Shown here: in pieces, positions 9,838 to 18,106 of the stretch
Numbering within the stretch: position 1 is the first letter of the stretch
Layout: every line of letters begins with the position of its first letter
Assembly: GCA_024704765.1 (NCBI GenBank)
Contig: JAKMXF010000210.1
Coordinates: forward strand, 656,121-720,120
From: Oopsacas minuta
Taxonomy: Eukaryota; Animalia; Porifera
Reading direction: 5' to 3'
Length of the DNA stretch: 64,000 nt
Program-made: the position numbers and the translations under genes
The notes under the pieces: model-generated
What the model saw: the letters and a program-made list of their open reading frames with translations, nothing else
The model's database searches: none
What the model was told of the DNA's origin: nothing

Positions 9838-10092
9838 GAGCCCTGTTATTTTTGAAGCAACTCTAGTAATATTTGTGATAATACGTATATATTGTTTTGC
9901 TCTGTAATTATACAGTATTAGTAGCAGCGGAATAAGAAGCCATAATTAATAGTATCACTATATAACTTGCTATGTCATTTGCTTAGTCATTTTGCTGACT
10001 GTAATAATAATAATACATCAAAGGAAGCTGTATATAATTATAACATATAGAGGAAATTTATGGCATAATATTATATCCGTCAATAGCTTGAC

Positions 10093-10674
10093 ATGTCAAT
10101 TGACACATCTCCTAACCTTATGACAGAATCAGCATCTACTCAACCTCCAGAAGATGCCGCTACCTTAGAGATCAAACAGAAGATGTTGTCAAACTTCTCA
10201 GTGTTTGATCACGAGAATACCAAGACTGTAGATGTTAGTGAGGTGAGGGCTATCGTAGCCTCTCTGGAGCTGTACCCCACTCAGACAGAGCTACACGATC
10301 TGATAACTGAGATGGAGGAGGAGGAACCTACTGGTTACATACGGTATGATAGGTTTGAACCAGTAAGTGCATTAGCCATATAAATGATTGGGTAATATAC
10401 TTATAGTGTATTATAGGTAGTGTTTAAAGCTGTAGCAGAGAAGCGCTACTCTCCTGCTAGCGAGGAGATCTTATTGAAAGCATTCGAGACTCTAGACAGA
10501 GATAACAGAGGATATCTAACACCTGAGGATATTGAGGCTTACTTCACTGAGGGGGAAGATTCATTTTCTAAAGAAGAATTAGATGAGTTCTTACACTCAG
10601 CAATAGATCCTAATACTGGGAATATTAACTACAGAGATTTTGTACAATCAATGCTAGAACAGGATTCTAACTAA
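10093..10674 (+). CDS. EF-hand calcium-binding protein (calmodulin-like, EFCAB2/DRC8-like), 2 exons (10093..10362, 10417..10674)
   Basis: Canonical EF-hand loop DRDNRGYLTPEDIEAYF and a second degenerate loop DPNTGNINYRDF. CCA|GTAAGT donor and tatag acceptor, phase 0. Confidence 0.6.
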
Positions 10675-10775
10675 CAGCCTAATCACTCAGTATATTACTA
10701 TTAATAACTACACAATGTATAACCTTATTACTAAATGTTATTATGATATTCGTTAGCTGATTGAAATGCTTTAGA

Positions 10776-13700
10776 ATGGATGATAAATCTCGGAGTGATA
10801 ATAAGAACGATAACTTTAAAGTGGGTCTACGAGTTAGACCCCCTCTAACCAAGGAGTCCAATAGCAAAAGATGTGTGCATCTGGAGCATGGAGGTGTGTC
10901 TGTATTCAGAGGGAACCTGGGATTAGACCTGAGAGGCAGGTCTCCTCAAGCTCTCATTGACGTCACTGACTTAGCAAATCTACAACCTGACCCTAAGCCT
11001 CAGACATTCTTCTATGATAGTTTGTTTGATATAACAGCATTACAGGTATAATAACCGCTATATTATAGCTATACTAGTGTTATCTATTATTAATTGTAGG
11101 AAGAAGTGTATGATACTTGTGCTCAGCCTATTGTCCTATCAGTACTGGAGGGATACAATGGTAGTGTTATAGCATACGGACAGACTGGTACTGGTAAGAC
11201 ACACACGATAGAAGGGACATATAGTGAGGAGGGGAGAGGCCTGATCCCTAGGTGTTCTGAGGAGATATTTCATTTTATTCAGAATAAAGCTGACTCGGAT
11301 TCTAAGTTCTTAGTAAGTTATCTAAACAAATAATAAAGAACAAACAATTCTATTATTTATTGGTGCTTTCAACTGGCTTCTTCTTGGCGGTGAGCAATAC
11401 TCCCGCTACTATAACGAACACTGTAAATCCCTGAGCTGCTACACGGGCCCGCATCATCAAATTTGACTTTCTTTGATCACCTTTAACGAACTGATATAAT
11501 CCATAAGAAAGTGCTGCTACTGTCAGTCCACATCCCAGAGGTACGAAGGGGTTTTCCTTGAGTTTCCTCCAGAGCTTCTCTCTCCTGGTCTCGGGTCCTG
11601 AGTAGATATATTCAGACAGCTGATCAGCAGTTATCTTATCTGAACTCATAGCTAAATAATAAATAGAAATTAGTTTATCAACCATAGATAAGAACTATAA
11701 ATTATAGGTACGGGTCTCCTTCTTGGAAATTTATAACGAGCGTCTATTTGACCTACTGGATCCATCTCATGAAAAGCTACGAGTACGCGAGGACGGCTCC
11801 AGCTGTACGTTTGTAGAGGGACTGAGTGAACACGTGGTTAAAGGGACCATGGATGTGAACAGACTTCTCAGGAAGGGATCAACAGCTCGTATAACAGATG
11901 GTTCTAAAATGAACAAAGAGAGTAGTCGCAGTCATGCTGTATTCACAATAGTGATAGAGCGATCTGGCGGATCATACAGGAGTAGAGTAACTATTGGGAA
12001 ATTACGCTTGGTTGATTTAGCTGGCTCTGAGAGGTGAGAATTGCCGCGAAATAACGCATAGTAATTCAGTTAATTCCCTCCTAATAGATTTGATATAGAA
12101 GCAAAAGACAAACATTTAACAGAGACTAAGAACATCAATACATCTCTCACAACATTCGGTAAAGTAGTTCTAGCCCTGACTAGCTCTGGATATCACTCCT
12201 ACATACCGTACAGAGACAGTAAGCTGACTAGGATCCTACAGGACTCCCTGGGTGGTAACAGCAAGGCCTTCTTAGTATGTACAGTCAGTCCTATGACAGA
12301 TTGCTATCTGGAGACCTTAAGTACTCTAAAATTCGCTCAGCGAGCTAAACATATACAGAATAAAGCTATTGTGAATCAGGACTTTACGAAGAAGGCAATG
12401 CTCTCTGCCTACGAGAAGGAGATAGCTCGTCTACACAAGGAACTGATCGAGAGCAGAGAGGGATGGGTATCTGCTGGGGAGTTAGAGAGAGTTAAAGAGG
12501 AGAAAGAGAGAGTTGAGTTAGAAAGAGAGGAGGTTATGCATATGCTGGCTAGACAGAACGAGCAGAGTAATCTGAAGGAAGATGAGAGAGAGAGTCTTGA
12601 GAAAAAGATACAGGAATTAGAGCTTCTTGTACTTAAGGTAATATATATCATATAATATAATATATTATTAGTTAAATATTCTTGTTCAGGGTGGTGATAA
12701 GTCTAAAGGGTCGTTAATAACTCCTGAAAGAGAGCTAGTCGATCAGAGACAAGCTCTAGAAGCAGAAAGGAAGAGATTAGAGGACGAGAGGATAGCATTT
12801 AAGCAAGAGAAAGATTCTTTCTTGAGAGCAAGAACAGCTCCTGACGGACAGACGGGATCTGATGAGGAAAATACCGACATGACGTCACCATATCGTCGAC
12901 GTGCTGGCAGTATAAGTTCATCAATCAGTTCATTACGTACTGGTCAGAACACACCAATTATGAGACAGTCTAGATGGTCTCAAAACTACGCGTCTATGTA
13001 TCCAGCTGGTCCTGTAATAGGTAGGAGTCACCAAGGATGGGTAGGATATCCTGTAAGTTATCATTAATGCTTATACATTACTCATTCTATTGATTATTAA
13101 CTTTATAGCAGCAAAGAAGCTCTGTAACAGCTCTCTTAGACGCATCGTACAGGAAGTCTCTTATCACATACGTCACTGCTCTGGCTAATCCTAAGACAGG
13201 AATTCCGTGTAAACAGTTCGATAATGGTTTGTCTGTGTTCTCAGGCAGTCATGCAGTCAAATGGTTCATGGATAATATGGATGGAGTAGGTAGTGTAAAT
13301 GCTGCTGCTGACGTAGGACAGAAGTTAATGAATCTACAGGTAATATCCCTGTTCCATTAATTCATAAATAATTATTACTTATAACAATTGTATAGGTGTT
13401 TATTAGCATGGACGGGACTCTACACTTCCTTCCTTCAGACACCAATTACTACAGATTCTCTCCTGAGTATATTCCTATTCATTCATCCTATCCTAGCAGA
13501 GAGAGTATACACTCAATAGACAGACCTATCTCCTCAGCTGTTCCTTCTATCAGGTCTAATAAATCCAGGAGCTTATCACCTGAATCCTATCCTCTGTCAA
13601 ATATGACATCTGACAACCTATCAACTAACACATACAGTCTCTTGTCTGATACGTCTTCTATTAGTAGTTACTCCTCCATGTCCTCAGCTACCAGGATACC

Positions 13701-16044
13701 TCTAATTGACAGACTGGGTTGGTCTAGTGCCTCTCTTCTACACATGACAGCTTCTCAAGTAAGTACTCTCCTCTATTGGATATATACTAATTGTTATATC
13801 TATATGTGTGTAGGGTAACCGGAGTCTCTTAAAGAGGTTAGTAGCTACACAGAACGTGAATGAGCTGGATACAGAGAACAGATCTGCTCTTATGTATGCT
13901 TGTGTGGGAGATCAGCTAAAGGCTGCTGAGATATTAATTAAGAAAGGAGCTAATACTAACTTAGTAGATAAGGCAGGTAACTCTGCTCTAATCTATGCTG
14001 TACAGTTCGGGAGAGATCAGGTTTGTTATTCTGTTTGATGCTCCAAATATTCTTTATAGCTTGTATTAGCTAGTTAAACTATTATTGAAGTCATCAGCTG
14101 ATTCATCTCTCAAGAATAAAGAGGGGAAGAATGCTATTCACATATGTGCAGAGATAGAAGAGAGTCTCAGATGTTTGGAGTTCTTATGCAAGTAATTATT
14201 ATTCAGACATATAACTTGTAATAGTCATTCTATACATATCATATATGTATTCTACAGACATTCTAGTGTAAATAGAGCTGTTAACGAGAGAGACGGTCGT
14301 ATGCAGTCTCCTCTACATATCAGTGTATTTGCTAACCTCCCTCAACACACCAGGATGCTACTAGTAGCTAGAGCTAAGCTGTGTATCAGTGATGCTGAGG
14401 GTAGGACCCCTCTACACTATGCTATTACAGCTAATTCTCTAATATGTCTTCAAATCATACTAGAGGTTGTTAATAATATTATAACTAGTAATTACATTCT
14501 CTTTGAATCTGGTTTCTCTATTGAATTTCAGAGTATTCTCATAACATGCATGTTACCTACGTAATAGACATAATTATATTAATAATCAGTTCAGAGCACT
14601 TAGAGGAGTCCAAGTTGTCGGATAGCCTTGAACTGGTCTGGAATCTCCATGAGGGCGTGGAGTGCAAAGTTCACTTCAGGGAAGTCTTGACCCTGAGTGA
14701 CCTTGTGGAAGTTCACAAATTGGAAATTATCAAAAGTTCTCTCTTTAATTCTGTCATCAAAATCCTCCATCGTATCCCATGGTCCATCTCCTACTCCTAC
14801 CATAACTATAGATAGCGGATACTTAGAAGCTCGTATTATTGCCGCGATAGTGTCTGCTTCATTTGTTACTTGTCCGTCCGCTATAATCACCAGGATATGA
14901 TATGACGTCATACTCCTAACTATCTCTATTGCTTTGTCAATGAGAGGCGCAAAGTTGGTGGGACCAGAGAGGGTAATGTGTGGAGTAATCTGCTCGTAGA
15001 TCTTCAAAGTGTCACTCACTCCGTTACACATTCCTCCATCTGTCTTGATGTTAAATACATTATTTCCTTTTGTTCTAGAATCCCCGAAACCATAAACAGG
15101 TATCATATTATCGTCATCAAATGGTTCTAGCACTAATCCTAGAGTCCGTATAACTTTCTGATATGGGTTGAGGAGAGGAGGGACTAATGCGTGTAGAGAG
15201 TGTCCTCCAAAGGTCTGCTCCCCTTGTGTGTTGTTACTACGTGTATAGTCTATACCAAATATCAGCTGACTAGACTCTAAGCCCGCCTTACGCATGCTAG
15301 CTTGTAAATCCTCAAAACTTCTGTATTTGTCCTGGATCGTTAGAAGAGTGGGTGTAGATTGTTTAGGGGGTTGTTTCTTCTTCTTCTTGTTAGCAGTCAC
15401 CAGATACACAATGAATAGAATTAATACGATTATCAGTAGTGTGTCCATGCTTGTATGCTGTAGAATATTTGTTATTATACTTTAGAGTCTGATTGCTATT
15501 GTATAGTCACACACTCCTATATATTAACATGTTACAGTATGTGTTTATGCCTAATGTAGTAATTCAAGTCAGGATTATTGTCAATGATTGAATGTAGTAA
15601 TTCAAGTCAGGAGTATAGTCAATGATTGAATGTAGTTTCGTCATTTATTTACTTAATAGTTAAATAGTTTGTACATTTATTTGTTAGAATTGTGGAAGAG
15701 ATGTAAATATTCCTGATACATCTGGGTGGTCTCCTCTACATCTTGCCTGTCATGACGGTACATCAGAATCTGTACAGCTGTTGATATCTTCCAAATATTG
15801 TGATGTCAATCTGTTAGACTTACACTCTGCTTCTCCTCTACACAATTGTGTGTTTGCTAATCGTCCTGACCTCATCAAGAAACTAATAGAGGCTGGAGCT
15901 AACCCTAACTGTCAGGACAAATCTAAGAGAGCTCCCTTACACTATGCCATAGAGAGGGGGTACACTGAATGTGCTCACATGTTACAGAAGAGTAACACAC
16001 CCCTCAAGGGCAAGACCCTGCTACACAACTTAAGAAATCTTTAG
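10776..16044 (+). CDS. Kinesin motor protein whose downstream exons encode coiled coil, a DEP domain and ankyrin repeats. About 12 exons; approximate exon list: 10776..11046, 11100..11312, 11713..12033, 12088..12651, 12687..13058, 13108..13339, 13396..13758, 13814..14010, 14091..14191, 14258..14463, 15688..16044
   Basis: Motor motifs [22 protein letters not shown] (P-loop), SSRSHAVF (switch I), LVDLAGSER (switch II), VSFLEIYNE and [23 protein letters not shown]. These are followed by the coiled coil [15 protein letters not shown].... The DEP core [31 protein letters not shown] is split by an intron. ANK repeats follow ([50 protein letters not shown]). Every junction has a GT donor and AG acceptor with consistent phase, and there is no in-frame stop between the motor and the DEP/ANK exons. 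Whether this is one transcript is inferred. Confidence 0.5.
11353..11685 (-). CDS. HIG1 domain protein (HIGD1/2-like), complete 110-aa ORF nested antisense inside kinesin intron 11313..11712
   Basis: [44 protein letters not shown] matches the HIGD1A consensus PFVPVGIAGFAAIVAYGLYKLK..MRVAAQGFVV. ATG start. Two TM helices. Confidence 0.75.
   Translation of the reverse strand: MVDKLISIYYLAMSSDKITADQLSEYIYSGPETRREKLWRKLKENPFVPLGCGLTVAALSYGLYQFVKGDQRKSNLMMRARVAAQGFTVFVIVAGVLLTAKKKPVESTNK
14600..15448 (-). CDS. Copine-like vWA-domain protein with N-terminal TM anchor (no C2 domains), nested antisense in a 1.2 kb intron of the ANK-repeat exons
   Basis: The N-terminal hydrophobic anchor is followed by a KKKKK stretch. 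The vWA/copine core reads [97 protein letters not shown] and aligns to the copine C-terminal A-domain consensus (NPY..A..VG..YD.D..FPAFGFG, LLIITDG..D, SIIIVGVG). Confidence 0.7.
   Translation of the reverse strand: MDTLLIIVLILFIVYLVTANKKKKKQPPKQSTPTLLTIQDKYRSFEDLQASMRKAGLESSQLIFGIDYTRSNNTQGEQTFGGHSLHALVPPLLNPYQKVIRTLGLVLEPFDDDNMIPVYGFGDSRTKGNNVFNIKTDGGMCNGVSDTLKIYEQITPHITLSGPTNFAPLIDKAIEIVRSMTSYHILVIIADGQVTNEADTIAAIIRASKYPLSIVMVGVGDGPWDTMEDFDDRIKERTFDNFQFVNFHKVTQGQDFPEVNFALHALMEIPDQFKAIRQLGLL
15552..15638. repeat. About 38-bp tandem duplication (2.3 copies) in the intron between the copine-like gene and the downstream ANK exon
   Basis: aatgtagtaattcaagtcaggattattgtcaatgattg is repeated as aatgtagtaattcaagtcaggagtatagtcaatgattg, then aatgtagtt. 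Confidence 0.85.
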
Positions 16045-16235
16045 AATAGAAATCCTTTACAAGTATGTAGTATGTTTTATTGACATATATTGTTTTTATG
16101 GTTTTTATCCATTTCTACTCATGAATAATTATTTCAGTTTAATATAAGAACATTATAACACTAAGTCATTATCCTATCAGCTTTAAACATACGCTCTGTA
16201 ACGAACTCAAATCTTCTCGATGGTTTGAACTATAA

Positions 16236-16706
16236 CTATTCTGTTATTTGGTTGACGGAATCAGTGATCTTAACAATATCGTCTAGTATGATAGACATCG
16301 CTACAATTAGAGCTCCTATTGCTAGTAGTATCGTGATCAGGGAAGATACTATAGCAGTGTAGGAGATTATCTTTAATATCTTGGCCCAGTAATGTGTGTT
16401 CTCTGAGTCTTTTTTGTTTTCGCTTGATCGCACTAGAAATGCTGCAATGATAGAGAATATCCCCAGACAGGGACAAGCTATACAAGCTGATATAGACAGT
16501 ATCCATACCCAGGGACCAGCAGCTGCTCCCATCCCCACATCGTATAGGTTAGGTGGTAGCATCGTGGGTTGATCCATGGTAAGCACAACTCCCGGATACA
16601 TAGCTGACTCTAGGTCAGGGTACTGTAAGGCTGGAGCTGAGGGTCCCGGTGAGGTGTGGTATTCTCCTTCATAGCCGAAAGCCTCTCTCTCTTTTTCTGT
16701 AGCCAT
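16236..16706 (-). CDS. CD225/dispanin family small membrane protein (copy B), start at MATEKE
   Basis: N-terminal Pro/Tyr-rich tail, then the two-helix CD225 core WVWILSISACIACPCLGIFSIIAAFLVRSSENKKD...TAIVSSLITILLAIGALIVAM. The track's start at 16865 is a GTG that overlaps the stop of copy A. Confidence 0.55.
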   Translation of the reverse strand: MATEKEREAFGYEGEYHTSPGPSAPALQYPDLESAMYPGVVLTMDQPTMLPPNLYDVGMGAAAGPWVWILSISACIACPCLGIFSIIAAFLVRSSENKKDSENTHYWAKILKIISYTAIVSSLITILLAIGALIVAMSIILDDIVKITDSVNQITE

Positions 16707-16861
16707 TAAGCTAACAATAGGTAATGAATTGATTAAAGAATACATTGTGTGGCGGTAATACAGTGTATCCCTTAATCCCTTATATGTAGAGTTCTTGTGC
16801 AATCTCTCTTTAATTGAAATGAAACACATCGTAACAAGGGCATGAAGCTTACCTGTAATAC

Positions 16862-17296
16862 TCACTGATCATTATACACTAAGTTTCGTAGTATAAAAAC
16901 TATTACAATCACTGCTATTAGACTGAAACATGCTGTGTACAGCACTGTACCCGTTACTATTGCTACTAGAGCAAATCCACGTCCGTACTTGACTTTTCTA
17001 TTTGTTTCGATTGTTTTGCCTTCTTCTGCGTCTTTGCAGGCTGAGAATGTGAAAATGATAGATGGAATTCCACAGGCTAGACAGCACACGAATGAGATGC
17101 TGGAGAGAATCCAGTCCAGAGTCTTAACTTGAGGTACCTTCTTCTGACGAAAATCGCTCAATCTTACAGCTGCTTCCTGTTGAGCTTTATAAGGATTGGT
17201 GTTTGGAGTGAATCCGTTGTCTTCGTATATCTCATATGGAGGAGGCAATGGGCACTCTTTGTTTGAATATTCGTCCAATTGCAATTCAGTATTCAT
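16862..17296 (-). CDS. CD225/dispanin family small membrane protein (copy A)
   Basis: MNTELQLDEY..PPPYEIY (PPxY) followed by WILSSISFVCCLACGIPSIIFTFSACKD...GFALVAIVTGTVLYTACFSLIAVIVIVF. This matches the IFITM/PRRT-type topology. Confidence 0.6.
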   Translation of the reverse strand: MNTELQLDEYSNKECPLPPPYEIYEDNGFTPNTNPYKAQQEAAVRLSDFRQKKVPQVKTLDWILSSISFVCCLACGIPSIIFTFSACKDAEEGKTIETNRKVKYGRGFALVAIVTGTVLYTACFSLIAVIVIVFILRNLVYNDQ

Positions 17297-18106
17297 TATA
17301 CATTAATTATTTCACTGGGATATTTTATATACTTAATGCAAGTGTTTTATGAAGGCATATACATATACACGAGCAATACTCACTTGTATGTTTGAGAATT
17401 GTCTCATGGTTGCTAGTGGGCATAATATTTCTTATTCTACCAAAGGCTCTTGTATCTGATTATTTCGTAATACAAATTCTATTGTTCTGGTGAGAATCTC
17501 AAGAGCATCTCAATGCCTCCCATACATACAATTCTCACATGGTTCTATTGAATTCTAAAGATTTACTTCGTATCATTAATGCTTTATTTTACGATAACTC
17601 TACGCTTCGTTTCTTTATATATTCACCCTATTCTAGTGATGATTATCTCACTCTCTTTAGCTTAGGATTGTGATCTTATCTGTGTAGGTATGTAGGCTAC
17701 TTTTCTGACAACAAATTTTACTTCAAAAATGGCTATTATCATTGTAGTAAATGGTGAGATTTTTCTAAGATTTGAATCTACCTTAGTTGGGTATTTTATC
17801 TGATTTCGTTTGGATTTATAAAGCCTCTCTTAGTTGTAGTGGTAAGCTCACCAAATTTAAGTAATTCATTACGAGTTGTGACAATAGTCACTACTGTAAC
17901 TGATAGAAATTACCAATTATCAATTAAGTATTGAATTGGTTTACGAATGGTCTGTTGACACTTTGGCACAAAAGCCACCAGGTTCCATTTTCCTATTCTC
18001 ACACTAATTTGATGCTTTACTCTGGGTATAAAGTTCTTTCCTATGCAATAGCCATCCAAGTAGCCTTCAATCAGGCTCTACAATAAATAGCTGAATTGCT
18101 CCTATT
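17297..18106. promoter_or_regulatory. Divergent intergenic region between the minus-strand CD225 gene and a plus-strand gene, a probable bidirectional promoter
   Basis: There is no ORF in this region and the flanking ATGs face away from each other. This is inference only. Confidence 0.3.

Follow-up and report, generated by a model that had tools for sequence, protein, structure and literature searches.

In the glass sponge Oopsacas minuta, a single-exon gene for a predicted membrane-anchored RGLG-type vWA protein lies antisense in the final intron of a kinesin-DEP-ankyrin gene

Introduction

In O. minuta, an open reading frame of 282 amino acids occupies the opposite strand of the final intron of a kinesin-DEP-ankyrin gene. 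Its presence raises two questions, namely whether the frame is a genuine gene nested in its host and what kind of protein it encodes. An earlier note, made from the sequence alone, took the product for an unusual copine. We addressed both questions in the window, that is, the whole stretch of 64,000 nucleotides that was analysed.

Results and Discussion

Evidence for an intact gene

The frame and its product are as follows.

14600..15448, minus strand: coding sequence including the stop codon, single exon, 282 aa, predicted membrane-anchored RGLG-type vWA / copine-domain protein, equal to KAI6655253.1

The earlier note had called these limits, this strand and this length exactly, and the open reading frame list confirmed that the frame opens with ATG. 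The protein is already deposited in GenBank, where KAI6655253.1 (Oopsacas minuta, "Copine family protein 2-like") is 100% identical to the product, and its family-level name is correct. We take this name to point to the C. elegans CPNA-1 to CPNA-5 group. The ortholog of the gene is transcribed in a relative: the transcriptome of Vazella pourtalesii contains a complete ORF of 282 aa that is 92% identical to the O. minuta protein and has the same start and end. The contigs of relatives used for comparison came from sponges in which the protein is 91-92% identical. When the nested coding sequence was compared with those of two related sponges, third codon positions accounted for 122 of 148 and 160 of 190 substitutions. 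Judged from these sequence comparisons, the ORF is an intact gene under selective constraint.

No minus-strand ORF of at least 50 aa able to supply C2 domains was present in 15449..16235, where an AG just ahead of the ATG might be a trans-splice or 5'-UTR acceptor, and an Rfam scan of 10000..18000 returned no match. In the promoter/terminator scan, promoter-like sites were below the shuffle mean and terminator-like sites numbered 0, the consensus employed being bacterial and irrelevant to a eukaryote. The canonical AATAAA was not found after the stop codon; only variant hexamers occur there, so no poly(A) site is claimed for the nested gene.

The predicted N-terminal anchor

The product consists of a 3-residue N-terminal stub, a hydrophobic helix (residues 2-20), a disordered linker containing KKKKK (21-37) and a vWA domain (38-282) that extends to the stop codon.

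15389..15445, minus strand: residues 2-20, hydrophobic helix, predicted signal-anchor or transmembrane segment (hydropathy, AlphaFold2, homologs)
15374..15388, minus strand: K21-K25, polybasic stretch (KKKKK) directly after the anchor (sequence), predicted cytosolic flank by the positive-inside rule

The protein begins MDTLLII and has no MG myristoylation signal, the hydrophobic helix standing in its place. The top 19-residue Kyte-Doolittle window covers residues 1-19 with a score of 2.63, and AlphaFold2 places a helix at residues 2-20 with a pLDDT of 82-87. Among the 120 best homologs, 85 have an equivalent N-terminal anchor, and these include proteins from molluscs, annelids, brachiopods, nemerteans, echinoderms, hemichordates, amphioxus, a choanoflagellate and an amoebozoan. 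A further 20 of these 120 homologs begin with MG (17) or MC (3), and their MG/MGC starts suggest apparent lipid-anchor signals for the cytosolic face of the membrane. Because homologs from many animal phyla, a choanoflagellate and an amoebozoan have the same layout, the combination of anchor and vWA domain is, as far as sequences tell, old and common, and is the norm for a large, poorly studied family. The architecture had been described as unusual in the earlier note, a view that the anchored and MG/MC homologs contradict, as do the existing GenBank entry and C. elegans CPNA-1, a protein with a predicted transmembrane segment and a copine domain that was described in 2013 (PMC3583664).

The hydrophobic N-terminus might instead be a cleavable signal peptide, in which case the vWA domain would be secreted or lumenal like the extracellular vWA adhesion domains. 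The hydrophobic run starts at residue 2-4 and leads into V-T-A/N, which fits the -3/-1 small-residue cleavage pattern, and many vWA domains are extracellular, with TRAP, CMG2 and ITIH1 among the lower Foldseek matches. However, the acidic MD precedes the hydrophobic run and positive charge follows it. This pattern recurs in 74 of the 85 anchored homologs, in which the flank after the helix is more positive in net charge than the flank before it (means of +2.56 for the C-terminal and -0.65 for the N-terminal flank in the homologs). In addition, the hydrophobic helix spans 19 residues in the AlphaFold2 model, and the MG/MGC starts of other homologs resemble lipid-anchor signals of the cytosolic face. 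RGLG and BON1, the closest relatives by structure, are cytosolic proteins (PMC7155146, PMC3654428). Extracellular vWA domains have a terminal disulfide that is missing from the RGLG-type VWA (PMC7155146), and the sponge protein contains a single Cys. A secreted or lumenal product is therefore unlikely.

Affinity of the vWA domain

14603..15337, minus strand: residues 38-282, vWA domain (Pfam, AlphaFold2, Foldseek, RGLG1 residue mapping)

The Pfam family Copine (PF07002) matched residues 84-279 over profile positions 1-212 of 218, with an E-value of 2.3e-65 and 220.6 bits against a cutoff of 27; the vWA-TerF-like profile also matched (E 3e-11), and no C2 domain was matched by Pfam. These results bear out the predicted transmembrane anchor, the polybasic stretch, the copine-family vWA domain and the absence of C2 domains that the earlier note had proposed. 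By sequence, RGLG1, RGLG2 and RGLG5 all gave E-values of 1e-72 to 1e-76 at about 50% identity (RGLG5 1.9e-76, RGLG1 7.6e-72), whereas the C2-copine BON1 gave 1.4e-20 at 29% identity. A Foldseek search with the AlphaFold2 model (pLDDT 89.7) returned the RGLG VWA domains with TM-scores of 0.83-0.86 and an rmsd of 1.1-1.2 A, against a TM-score of 0.65 for BON1. On this contrast in bit scores, identity and TM-scores, which carries the placement, sequence and model assign the vWA domain to the RGLG-type branch and not to the canonical copines minus C2.

The earlier note had the anchor replace the C2 domains of canonical copines; on that reading, a copine would recently have exchanged its two C2 domains for a transmembrane anchor and become an unusual module independent of Ca2+. 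The Pfam family is indeed Copine and C2 is absent, but the domain is far nearer the RGLG VWA than that of a C2-copine, the layout of anchor plus vWA is spread from molluscs to a choanoflagellate and an amoebozoan, and the VWA domain itself retains its Ca2+-site residues. We regard such a recent loss as highly improbable.

In RGLG1, the MIDAS (DxTxS...T...D) is formed by D162, T164, S166, T258 and D286, and two Ca2+ sites are formed by D338, D347, Q350 and E378 (NCBS1) and by N156, D205, D207 and the backbone of L209 (NCBS2) (PMC7155146). Alignment to RGLG1 revealed that the MIDAS is complete in the nested protein (D67, T69, S71, T164 and D191) and that the counterparts are D231, D240, Q243 and E268 for NCBS1 and Q61, D111, D113 and M115 for NCBS2. 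The sole changed Ca2+-site residue is Q61 for N156 of RGLG1, a conservative replacement. The MIDAS and RGLG1-type Ca2+-site residues are invariant across 35 aligned homologs, Q243 nearly so. With the MIDAS intact and only one RGLG1 Ca2+-site residue altered, there is no support for describing the module as Ca-independent.

The host gene and its introns

10776..16044, plus strand: host gene model, 11 exons, 1069 aa, kinesin motor, coiled coil, DEP, Ser-rich linker and ankyrin repeats
14258..14465, plus strand: host ankyrin exon upstream of the intron, ending LICLQIILE
14466..15687, plus strand: host intron, 1222 nt, GTTGTT...TTAG, holding the whole nested coding sequence
15688..16044, plus strand: terminal host ankyrin exon, stop codon at 16042-16044
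11353..11685, minus strand: first nested antisense gene, HIG_1_N protein, 110 aa, in the 395-nt intron 11313..11707

The host intron has the donor GAG/GTTGTT, with GT at 14466-14467, and its acceptor AG lies at 15686-15687. The exons on either side are in phase 0, and the 11-exon model is frame-consistent. A 1.2 kb intron of the ankyrin exons had been recognised in the earlier note, and its start, given as 14464, was 2 nt early. The same note considered the donor weak and the boundary uncertain, but three lines of evidence fix the boundary. First, conservation with two other sponge genomes ends at GAG/GT and restarts at TTAG/AATTGTGG, the GT and AG occupy identical positions in the three species, and similarity falls immediately inside the intron. 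Second, the best Ank repeat match (host residues 930-961) spans the junction 951/952. Third, a kinesin-DEP-ANK homolog (P0217) aligns to the host without a gap over this junction.

In protein searches, the spliced ankyrin C-terminus of the host retrieved mainly generic ankyrin proteins, the ortholog not being among them, and the unique linker exon retrieved a single fragment from a relative. A search of representative proteins with the full host model yielded no close full-length ortholog and recovered the kinesin-DEP-ANK family, an architecture that recurs in unrelated public proteins (P0216-P0232). The public set of O. minuta proteins seems to lack the product of the host gene.

This absence of the host protein from the database, and a donor that is off consensus, would fit a reading in which the ORF is not nested at all, the ankyrin exons belonging to separate genes or the interval being host exon. 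However, the GT and AG fixed in three species with similarity lost just inside them, the Ank repeat that bridges the junction, the gap-free homolog and the recurrence of the architecture in other organisms all oppose it. Another intron of the host uses a GTTTGT donor, and the plus-strand ORFs of the interval are short and without a domain. We give this reading very little credence.

Nesting and its conservation

The vWA gene thus lies antisense in the last host intron, its coding sequence fully within 14466..15687. Only two introns of the host gene are long, and each holds one antisense gene, HIG1 in one and the anchored vWA gene in the other; the claim of a second nested antisense gene in the same host is genuine, the HIG1 gene being the first. 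Two other glass-sponge genomes show the same double-nest arrangement, and the position of the HIG1 gene is conserved in four loci (L001-L004). Because only 134 nt separate the stop codon of the nested gene from the upstream host exon, its 3' UTR may overlap that exon.

The double nest has been kept across at least two glass-sponge families, with the intervening sequence squeezed nearly to the coding sequences. Functional coupling of the motor and the membrane adaptor, through antisense or transcriptional-interference regulation or through co-expression, might be imagined in place of neutral persistence. A separate idea is that the minimal anchored RGLG-type vWA protein, its Ca2+-switch residues being intact, stands for an ancient and barely studied Ca2+-gated membrane scaffold. 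We think these readings quite unlikely. For Aphrocallistes vastus, 2432 nested genes (12.4%) have been counted, against only 83 in the annotation of O. minuta; the same paper puts the low figures of some genomes down to the annotation method (PMC10282587).

15553..15636, no strand: tandem duplication, 38 bp, 2.2 copies (Tandem Repeats Finder, 95% matches)

The 38-bp duplication that had been noted at 15552..15638 is present, within slightly different limits, in the 239 nt that separate the ATG of the nested gene from the host acceptor. Its motif, GTAGTAATTCAAGTCA, is single-copy in two related sponges. We rejected it as a candidate regulatory array: it is a simple two-copy, species-specific duplication whose motif occurs nowhere else in the window.

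Comparison with known systems

Plant RGLG1/2/5 (PDB 6K8x, 8HMG/8HMH, 8XT5) share with the sponge protein the VWA sub-type, the MIDAS and the NCBS1/NCBS2 residues, as well as an N-terminal membrane tether, which is N-myristoylation in RGLG and would be the helix with its polybasic stretch in the sponge; myristoylation accounts for the plasma-membrane attachment of RGLG2 and McCPN1 (PMC3654428). They differ in the Asn at RGLG1 position 156, which is Gln in the sponge protein, in a 12-residue insertion after the MIDAS Asp strand, which the sponge protein lacks, and in a C-terminal RING-HCa domain. No RING domain was found in the nested protein, which ends at the last helix of its VWA domain according to Pfam, the RGLG alignment and AlphaFold2; therefore, no ligase activity is expected. 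Although RGLG E3 ligases are the nearest relatives of known structure, a RING in an unrecognised downstream exon is scarcely credible, since the ORF terminates right after RQLGLL, 89 of the 94 homologs in which an LGLL-like motif was located end 0-7 residues past it, the complete ORF of the Vazella transcript stops at the same point, and the host exon lies only 134 nt beyond the stop codon.

Among animal proteins, C. elegans CPNA-1 to CPNA-5 ("copine domain atypical"; Warner et al. 2013, PMC3583664) likewise have a copine vWA domain without C2, and the sponge protein has the predicted N-terminal transmembrane helix, the copine domain and the lack of C2 by which CPNA-1 was characterised (PMC3583664). 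However, CPNA-1 has 1107 aa, and a long stretch separates its copine domain from its transmembrane segment, whereas the sponge protein is minimal, with 282 aa and a 17-residue linker. A sponge need not possess the partners that CPNA-1 has in muscle adhesion. Canonical copines (C2A-C2B-vWA; human CPNE1-9, Arabidopsis BON1-3) share the Pfam Copine vWA domain and its use as a membrane-recruited binding module, but BON1 is distant in both identity (only 29%) and fold (TM-score 0.65), and their membrane association is triggered by Ca2+ and phospholipid, whereas that of the sponge protein, which has no C2 domains, would be constitutive. As regards the nesting, single-exon genes in introns of other genes, conserved among hexactinellids, are known from Aphrocallistes vastus (PMC10282587), and the present case is nothing unusual.

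Proposed function and significance

Taken together, the locus is very probably an intact, constrained, single-exon antisense gene in the last intron of a kinesin-DEP-ankyrin gene; its product, a predicted anchored RGLG-type vWA protein, would act as a metal-dependent membrane adaptor. By the positive-inside rule and by analogy, the helix would be a reverse signal-anchor that puts the N terminus of the protein outside and its C terminus in the cytosol, so as to tether the vWA domain permanently on the cytosolic face of the membrane, where the polybasic stretch may rest against acidic lipids. The vWA domain would serve as a metal-dependent protein-docking module, its MIDAS (D67-x-T69-x-S71, T164, D191) presumably binding a ligand carboxylate via Mg2+, and the two RGLG1-type Ca2+ sites could toggle it between open and closed states. 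The protein may thereby bring cytosolic partners to the membrane without ligase activity, comparable to CPNA-1 at integrin adhesions and to the myristoylated plant RGLGs.

Glass-sponge genomes routinely contain nested genes, and the domain layout, like the nesting, is common. The finding is thus correct but unremarkable and has little import beyond annotation. For annotation, a host gene with its two nested genes can be modelled from the window. For the family, Ca2+-independence should not be assumed of "copine-like" proteins without C2 domains, since, in the 35 homologs that were aligned, the residues of the RGLG1 VWA Ca2+ switch are invariant.

Identity and domain structure of the vWA protein

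In the protein search, the 282-aa product of the ORF at 14600..15448 (minus strand) of the glass sponge Oopsacas minuta was 100% identical to KAI6655253.1 (UniProt A0AAV7K2T6), deposited as "Copine family protein 2-like [Oopsacas minuta]". The earlier note had given exactly this ORF and length; its observation was confirmed, and its interpretation was partly supported. The gene belongs to a widespread family and already carries an annotation; it is intact and constrained and has a transcribed Vazella ortholog (Trinity ORF). The Pfam search that the note had proposed revealed the expected copine/vWA domain (Copine, residues 84-279, E 2.3e-65, 220.6 bits against a cutoff of 27 bits; vWA-TerF-like, E 3e-11) and, as claimed, no C2 domain in the 282-aa protein. 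The proposed hydrophobic N-terminal anchor followed by KKKKK was also present: residues 1-19 were very hydrophobic (Kyte-Doolittle 2.63, 19-residue window). From the N-terminus on, the protein comprises the anchor helix, a linker with the polybasic stretch and a vWA domain of the RGLG type.

15374..15388, minus strand: K21-K25, directly after the hydrophobic N-terminus

The note had envisaged a canonical copine whose C2 domains had been replaced. However, by sequence the nearest solved structures were VWA domains of plant ubiquitin ligases, with the C2-copine BONZAI1 (BON1) far behind.

Sequence comparison of the vWA protein with solved structures (E-values)
RGLG5 VWA (8XT5): 1.9e-76
RGLG2 VWA: 4.1e-74
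RGLG1 VWA: 7.6e-72
BONZAI1: 1.4e-20

An AlphaFold2 model built with 35 homologs as input (mean pLDDT 89.7) placed a helix at residues 2-20 and a compact alpha/beta domain at 38-282, with residues 23-37 disordered. The top Foldseek PDB matches were the RGLG5/1/2 VWA domains (TM-score 0.83-0.86, rmsd 1.1-1.2 A, 48-52% identity), while BON1 ranked far lower (TM-score 0.65, 29% identity). Because both rankings favour RGLG, the sponge domain is assigned, on sequence and predicted fold, to the RGLG-type branch of the Pfam Copine family and not to a C2-copine A domain left after C2 loss. Unlike the RGLGs, the sponge protein has no RING domain and stops directly after ...RQLGLL; an LGLL-like motif lay 0-7 residues from the C-terminus in 89 of the 94 homologs where it could be located.

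Conservation of predicted metal sites

The RGLG1 structure paper defines three metal sites, and the open/closed switch of the VWA domain is set by Ca2+ occupancy at one of them, NCBS1 (PMC7155146). Their residues were mapped to the sponge protein through a HMMER alignment.

Metal sites of RGLG1 (PMC7155146) and aligned sponge residues
MIDAS: RGLG1 D162-x-T164-x-S166, T258, D286; sponge D67, T69, S71, T164, D191
NCBS1: RGLG1 D338, D347, Q350, E378; sponge D231, D240, Q243, E268
NCBS2: RGLG1 N156, D205, D207, L209 (backbone); sponge Q61, D111, D113, M115

The predicted sites appear to be kept, with Q61 in place of N156. Since their acidic and hydroxyl residues were invariant in the 35-homolog alignment (Q243 nearly so), the description of the module as Ca-independent is unsupported. 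Loss of C2 domains would end Ca2+-triggered membrane binding, but not necessarily Ca2+ regulation of the vWA domain.

Distribution of the anchored architecture

Of the 4495 significant homologs in the protein search, the best 120 were mostly 260-350 aa long and came from molluscs, annelids, brachiopods, nemerteans, echinoderms, hemichordates, amphioxus, a choanoflagellate, an amoebozoan and oomycetes. A hydrophobic segment (score >=1.6) preceded the vWA domain in 85 of these 120, usually starting at residue 1-5. Among the other 35, 17 begin with MG (often MGC) and 3 with MC, starts that point to a lipid anchor; several of the 15 sequences left over are truncated. Membrane tethering of this domain type has precedents: plant RGLG2 and McCPN1 reach the plasma membrane through myristoylation (PMC3654428), and C. 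elegans CPNA-1, reported in 2013, has a copine domain, lacks C2 domains and is predicted to have a transmembrane helix at its N-terminus; Pfam then already contained 168 sequences of the copine-only kind (PMC3583664). Given this recurrence and these precedents, the architecture is not unusual, contrary to the initial view.

Host gene and antisense nesting

The plus strand reads as 11 frame-consistent exons (10776..16044) encoding 1069 aa. In this product a full-length kinesin motor (E 2.8e-104, profile positions 1-327) is followed by a coiled coil, then by a DEP domain (E 1.6e-8), a Ser-rich linker and ankyrin repeats. Several unrelated database proteins of 1040-1300 aa (P0216-P0232) share the kinesin-DEP-ANK architecture, in support of treating the kinesin and ankyrin exons as one gene. 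Eight introns span 49-66 nt, and each of the two long ones contains one antisense single-exon gene; as the note had stated, the vWA coding sequence is nested and is the second such gene in this host.

11313..11707, plus strand: host intron, 395 nt, holding the HIG_1_N gene (11353..11685, minus strand, E 3e-24)
14466..15687, plus strand: host intron, 1222 nt, holding the vWA gene (minus strand)

Five lines of evidence fix the 14465/15688 junction, which had been considered uncertain because of a weak donor, GTTGTT. The flanking exons are both in phase 0 with GT..AG boundaries. The best single Ank repeat match (residues 930-961) straddles the junction at 951/952. In two other glass-sponge genomes (L002-L005, probably Vazella pourtalesii because a Vazella transcript ORF is encoded there, and L001), similarity stops exactly at GAG/GT and restarts exactly at TTAG/AATTGTGG, with donors GTATGT and GTGATC. 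Both ankyrin exons and the vWA CDS, each read in its own frame, show a concentration of substitutions at third codon positions. Finally, the independent kinesin-DEP-ANK protein P0217 aligns gap-free across the junction (LICLQIILE/... against FECCQVLLEHCPQLVNATD). The donor is not exceptional for this gene, since the intron at 14021 uses GTTTGT.

Synteny, HIG1 nest included, is kept in L001-L004, and related sponges have the HIG_1_N gene (110 aa) at the same position. This gene fills 333 of the 395 nt; with flanks of just 40 and 22 nt, its UTRs and promoter necessarily extend into the kinesin exons. Nesting is common in this type of glass-sponge genome. In Aphrocallistes vastus, 2432 genes (12.4%) are nested, versus 83 in the O. 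minuta annotation, and low counts in some genomes have been put down to gene predictors that do not allow one gene inside another (PMC10282587). Protein searches found no database match for the O. minuta host protein, which fits that low count; the host gene seems to be unannotated, split or mis-modelled.

A separate two-exon EF-hand gene (10093..10674, plus strand) ends about 100 nt ahead of the kinesin start codon, an example of how tightly genes are packed in this genome. Just downstream of the host stop codon, two minus-strand ORFs (16236..16865, 209 aa; 16862..17296, 144 aa) overlap by 4 nt; both show weak CD225/interferon-induced transmembrane protein matches under the Pfam cutoff and are conserved in related contigs.

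Spacers around the vWA gene

The reported 38-bp duplication was recovered at 15553..15636 (2.2 copies, 95% matches), within the 239-nt spacer that separates the vWA ATG from the host acceptor. Cross-species alignment of this spacer is poor, with BLAST alignments breaking at 15448/15676. A core motif, GTAGTAATTCAAGTCA (...GACTTGAATTACTAC on the vWA-gene strand), occurs once in each relative and twice in O. minuta, with no further copies found elsewhere in the window; speculatively, it may be a promoter-proximal element duplicated in O. minuta.

15449..15460, minus strand: acceptor-like AG (in L002 and L001, just upstream of position 10001)

In all three species this AG precedes the vWA start codon by 0-8 nt (ttctacag-catacaagc-ATG, tccag-ATG and gacagt-ATG). 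It could serve as an acceptor for a spliced leader or for a 5'-UTR intron; the glass sponge A. vastus is reported to use spliced-leader trans-splicing. On the other side of the gene, 134 nt (14466..14599) separate the vWA stop codon from the host exon; this spacer contains short blocks conserved among the three species (TGTCTATTACGTAG and CAATAGAGAAACC, minus-strand reading) and no canonical AATAAA. At its 3' end, the nested vWA mRNA may run into the host ankyrin exon.

Topology and possible function

In the 85 anchored homologs, mean net charge was -0.65 in the N-terminal and +2.56 in the C-terminal flank of the hydrophobic segment, the latter being more positive in 74. Under the positive-inside rule, and given the apparent cytosolic-face lipid anchors of sister proteins, the helix would be a reverse signal-anchor and the vWA domain cytosolic. 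The main rival, in which a signal peptide is cleaved off and the vWA domain is secreted, seems quite improbable. A cytosolic vWA domain would act through its MIDAS as a Mg2+-dependent docking module, possibly gated by Ca2+, and would bring partners to a membrane, comparable to scaffolding by CPNA-1 and substrate binding by RGLGs; whereas the RGLGs are ligases, the sponge protein would provide recruitment without ligase activity.
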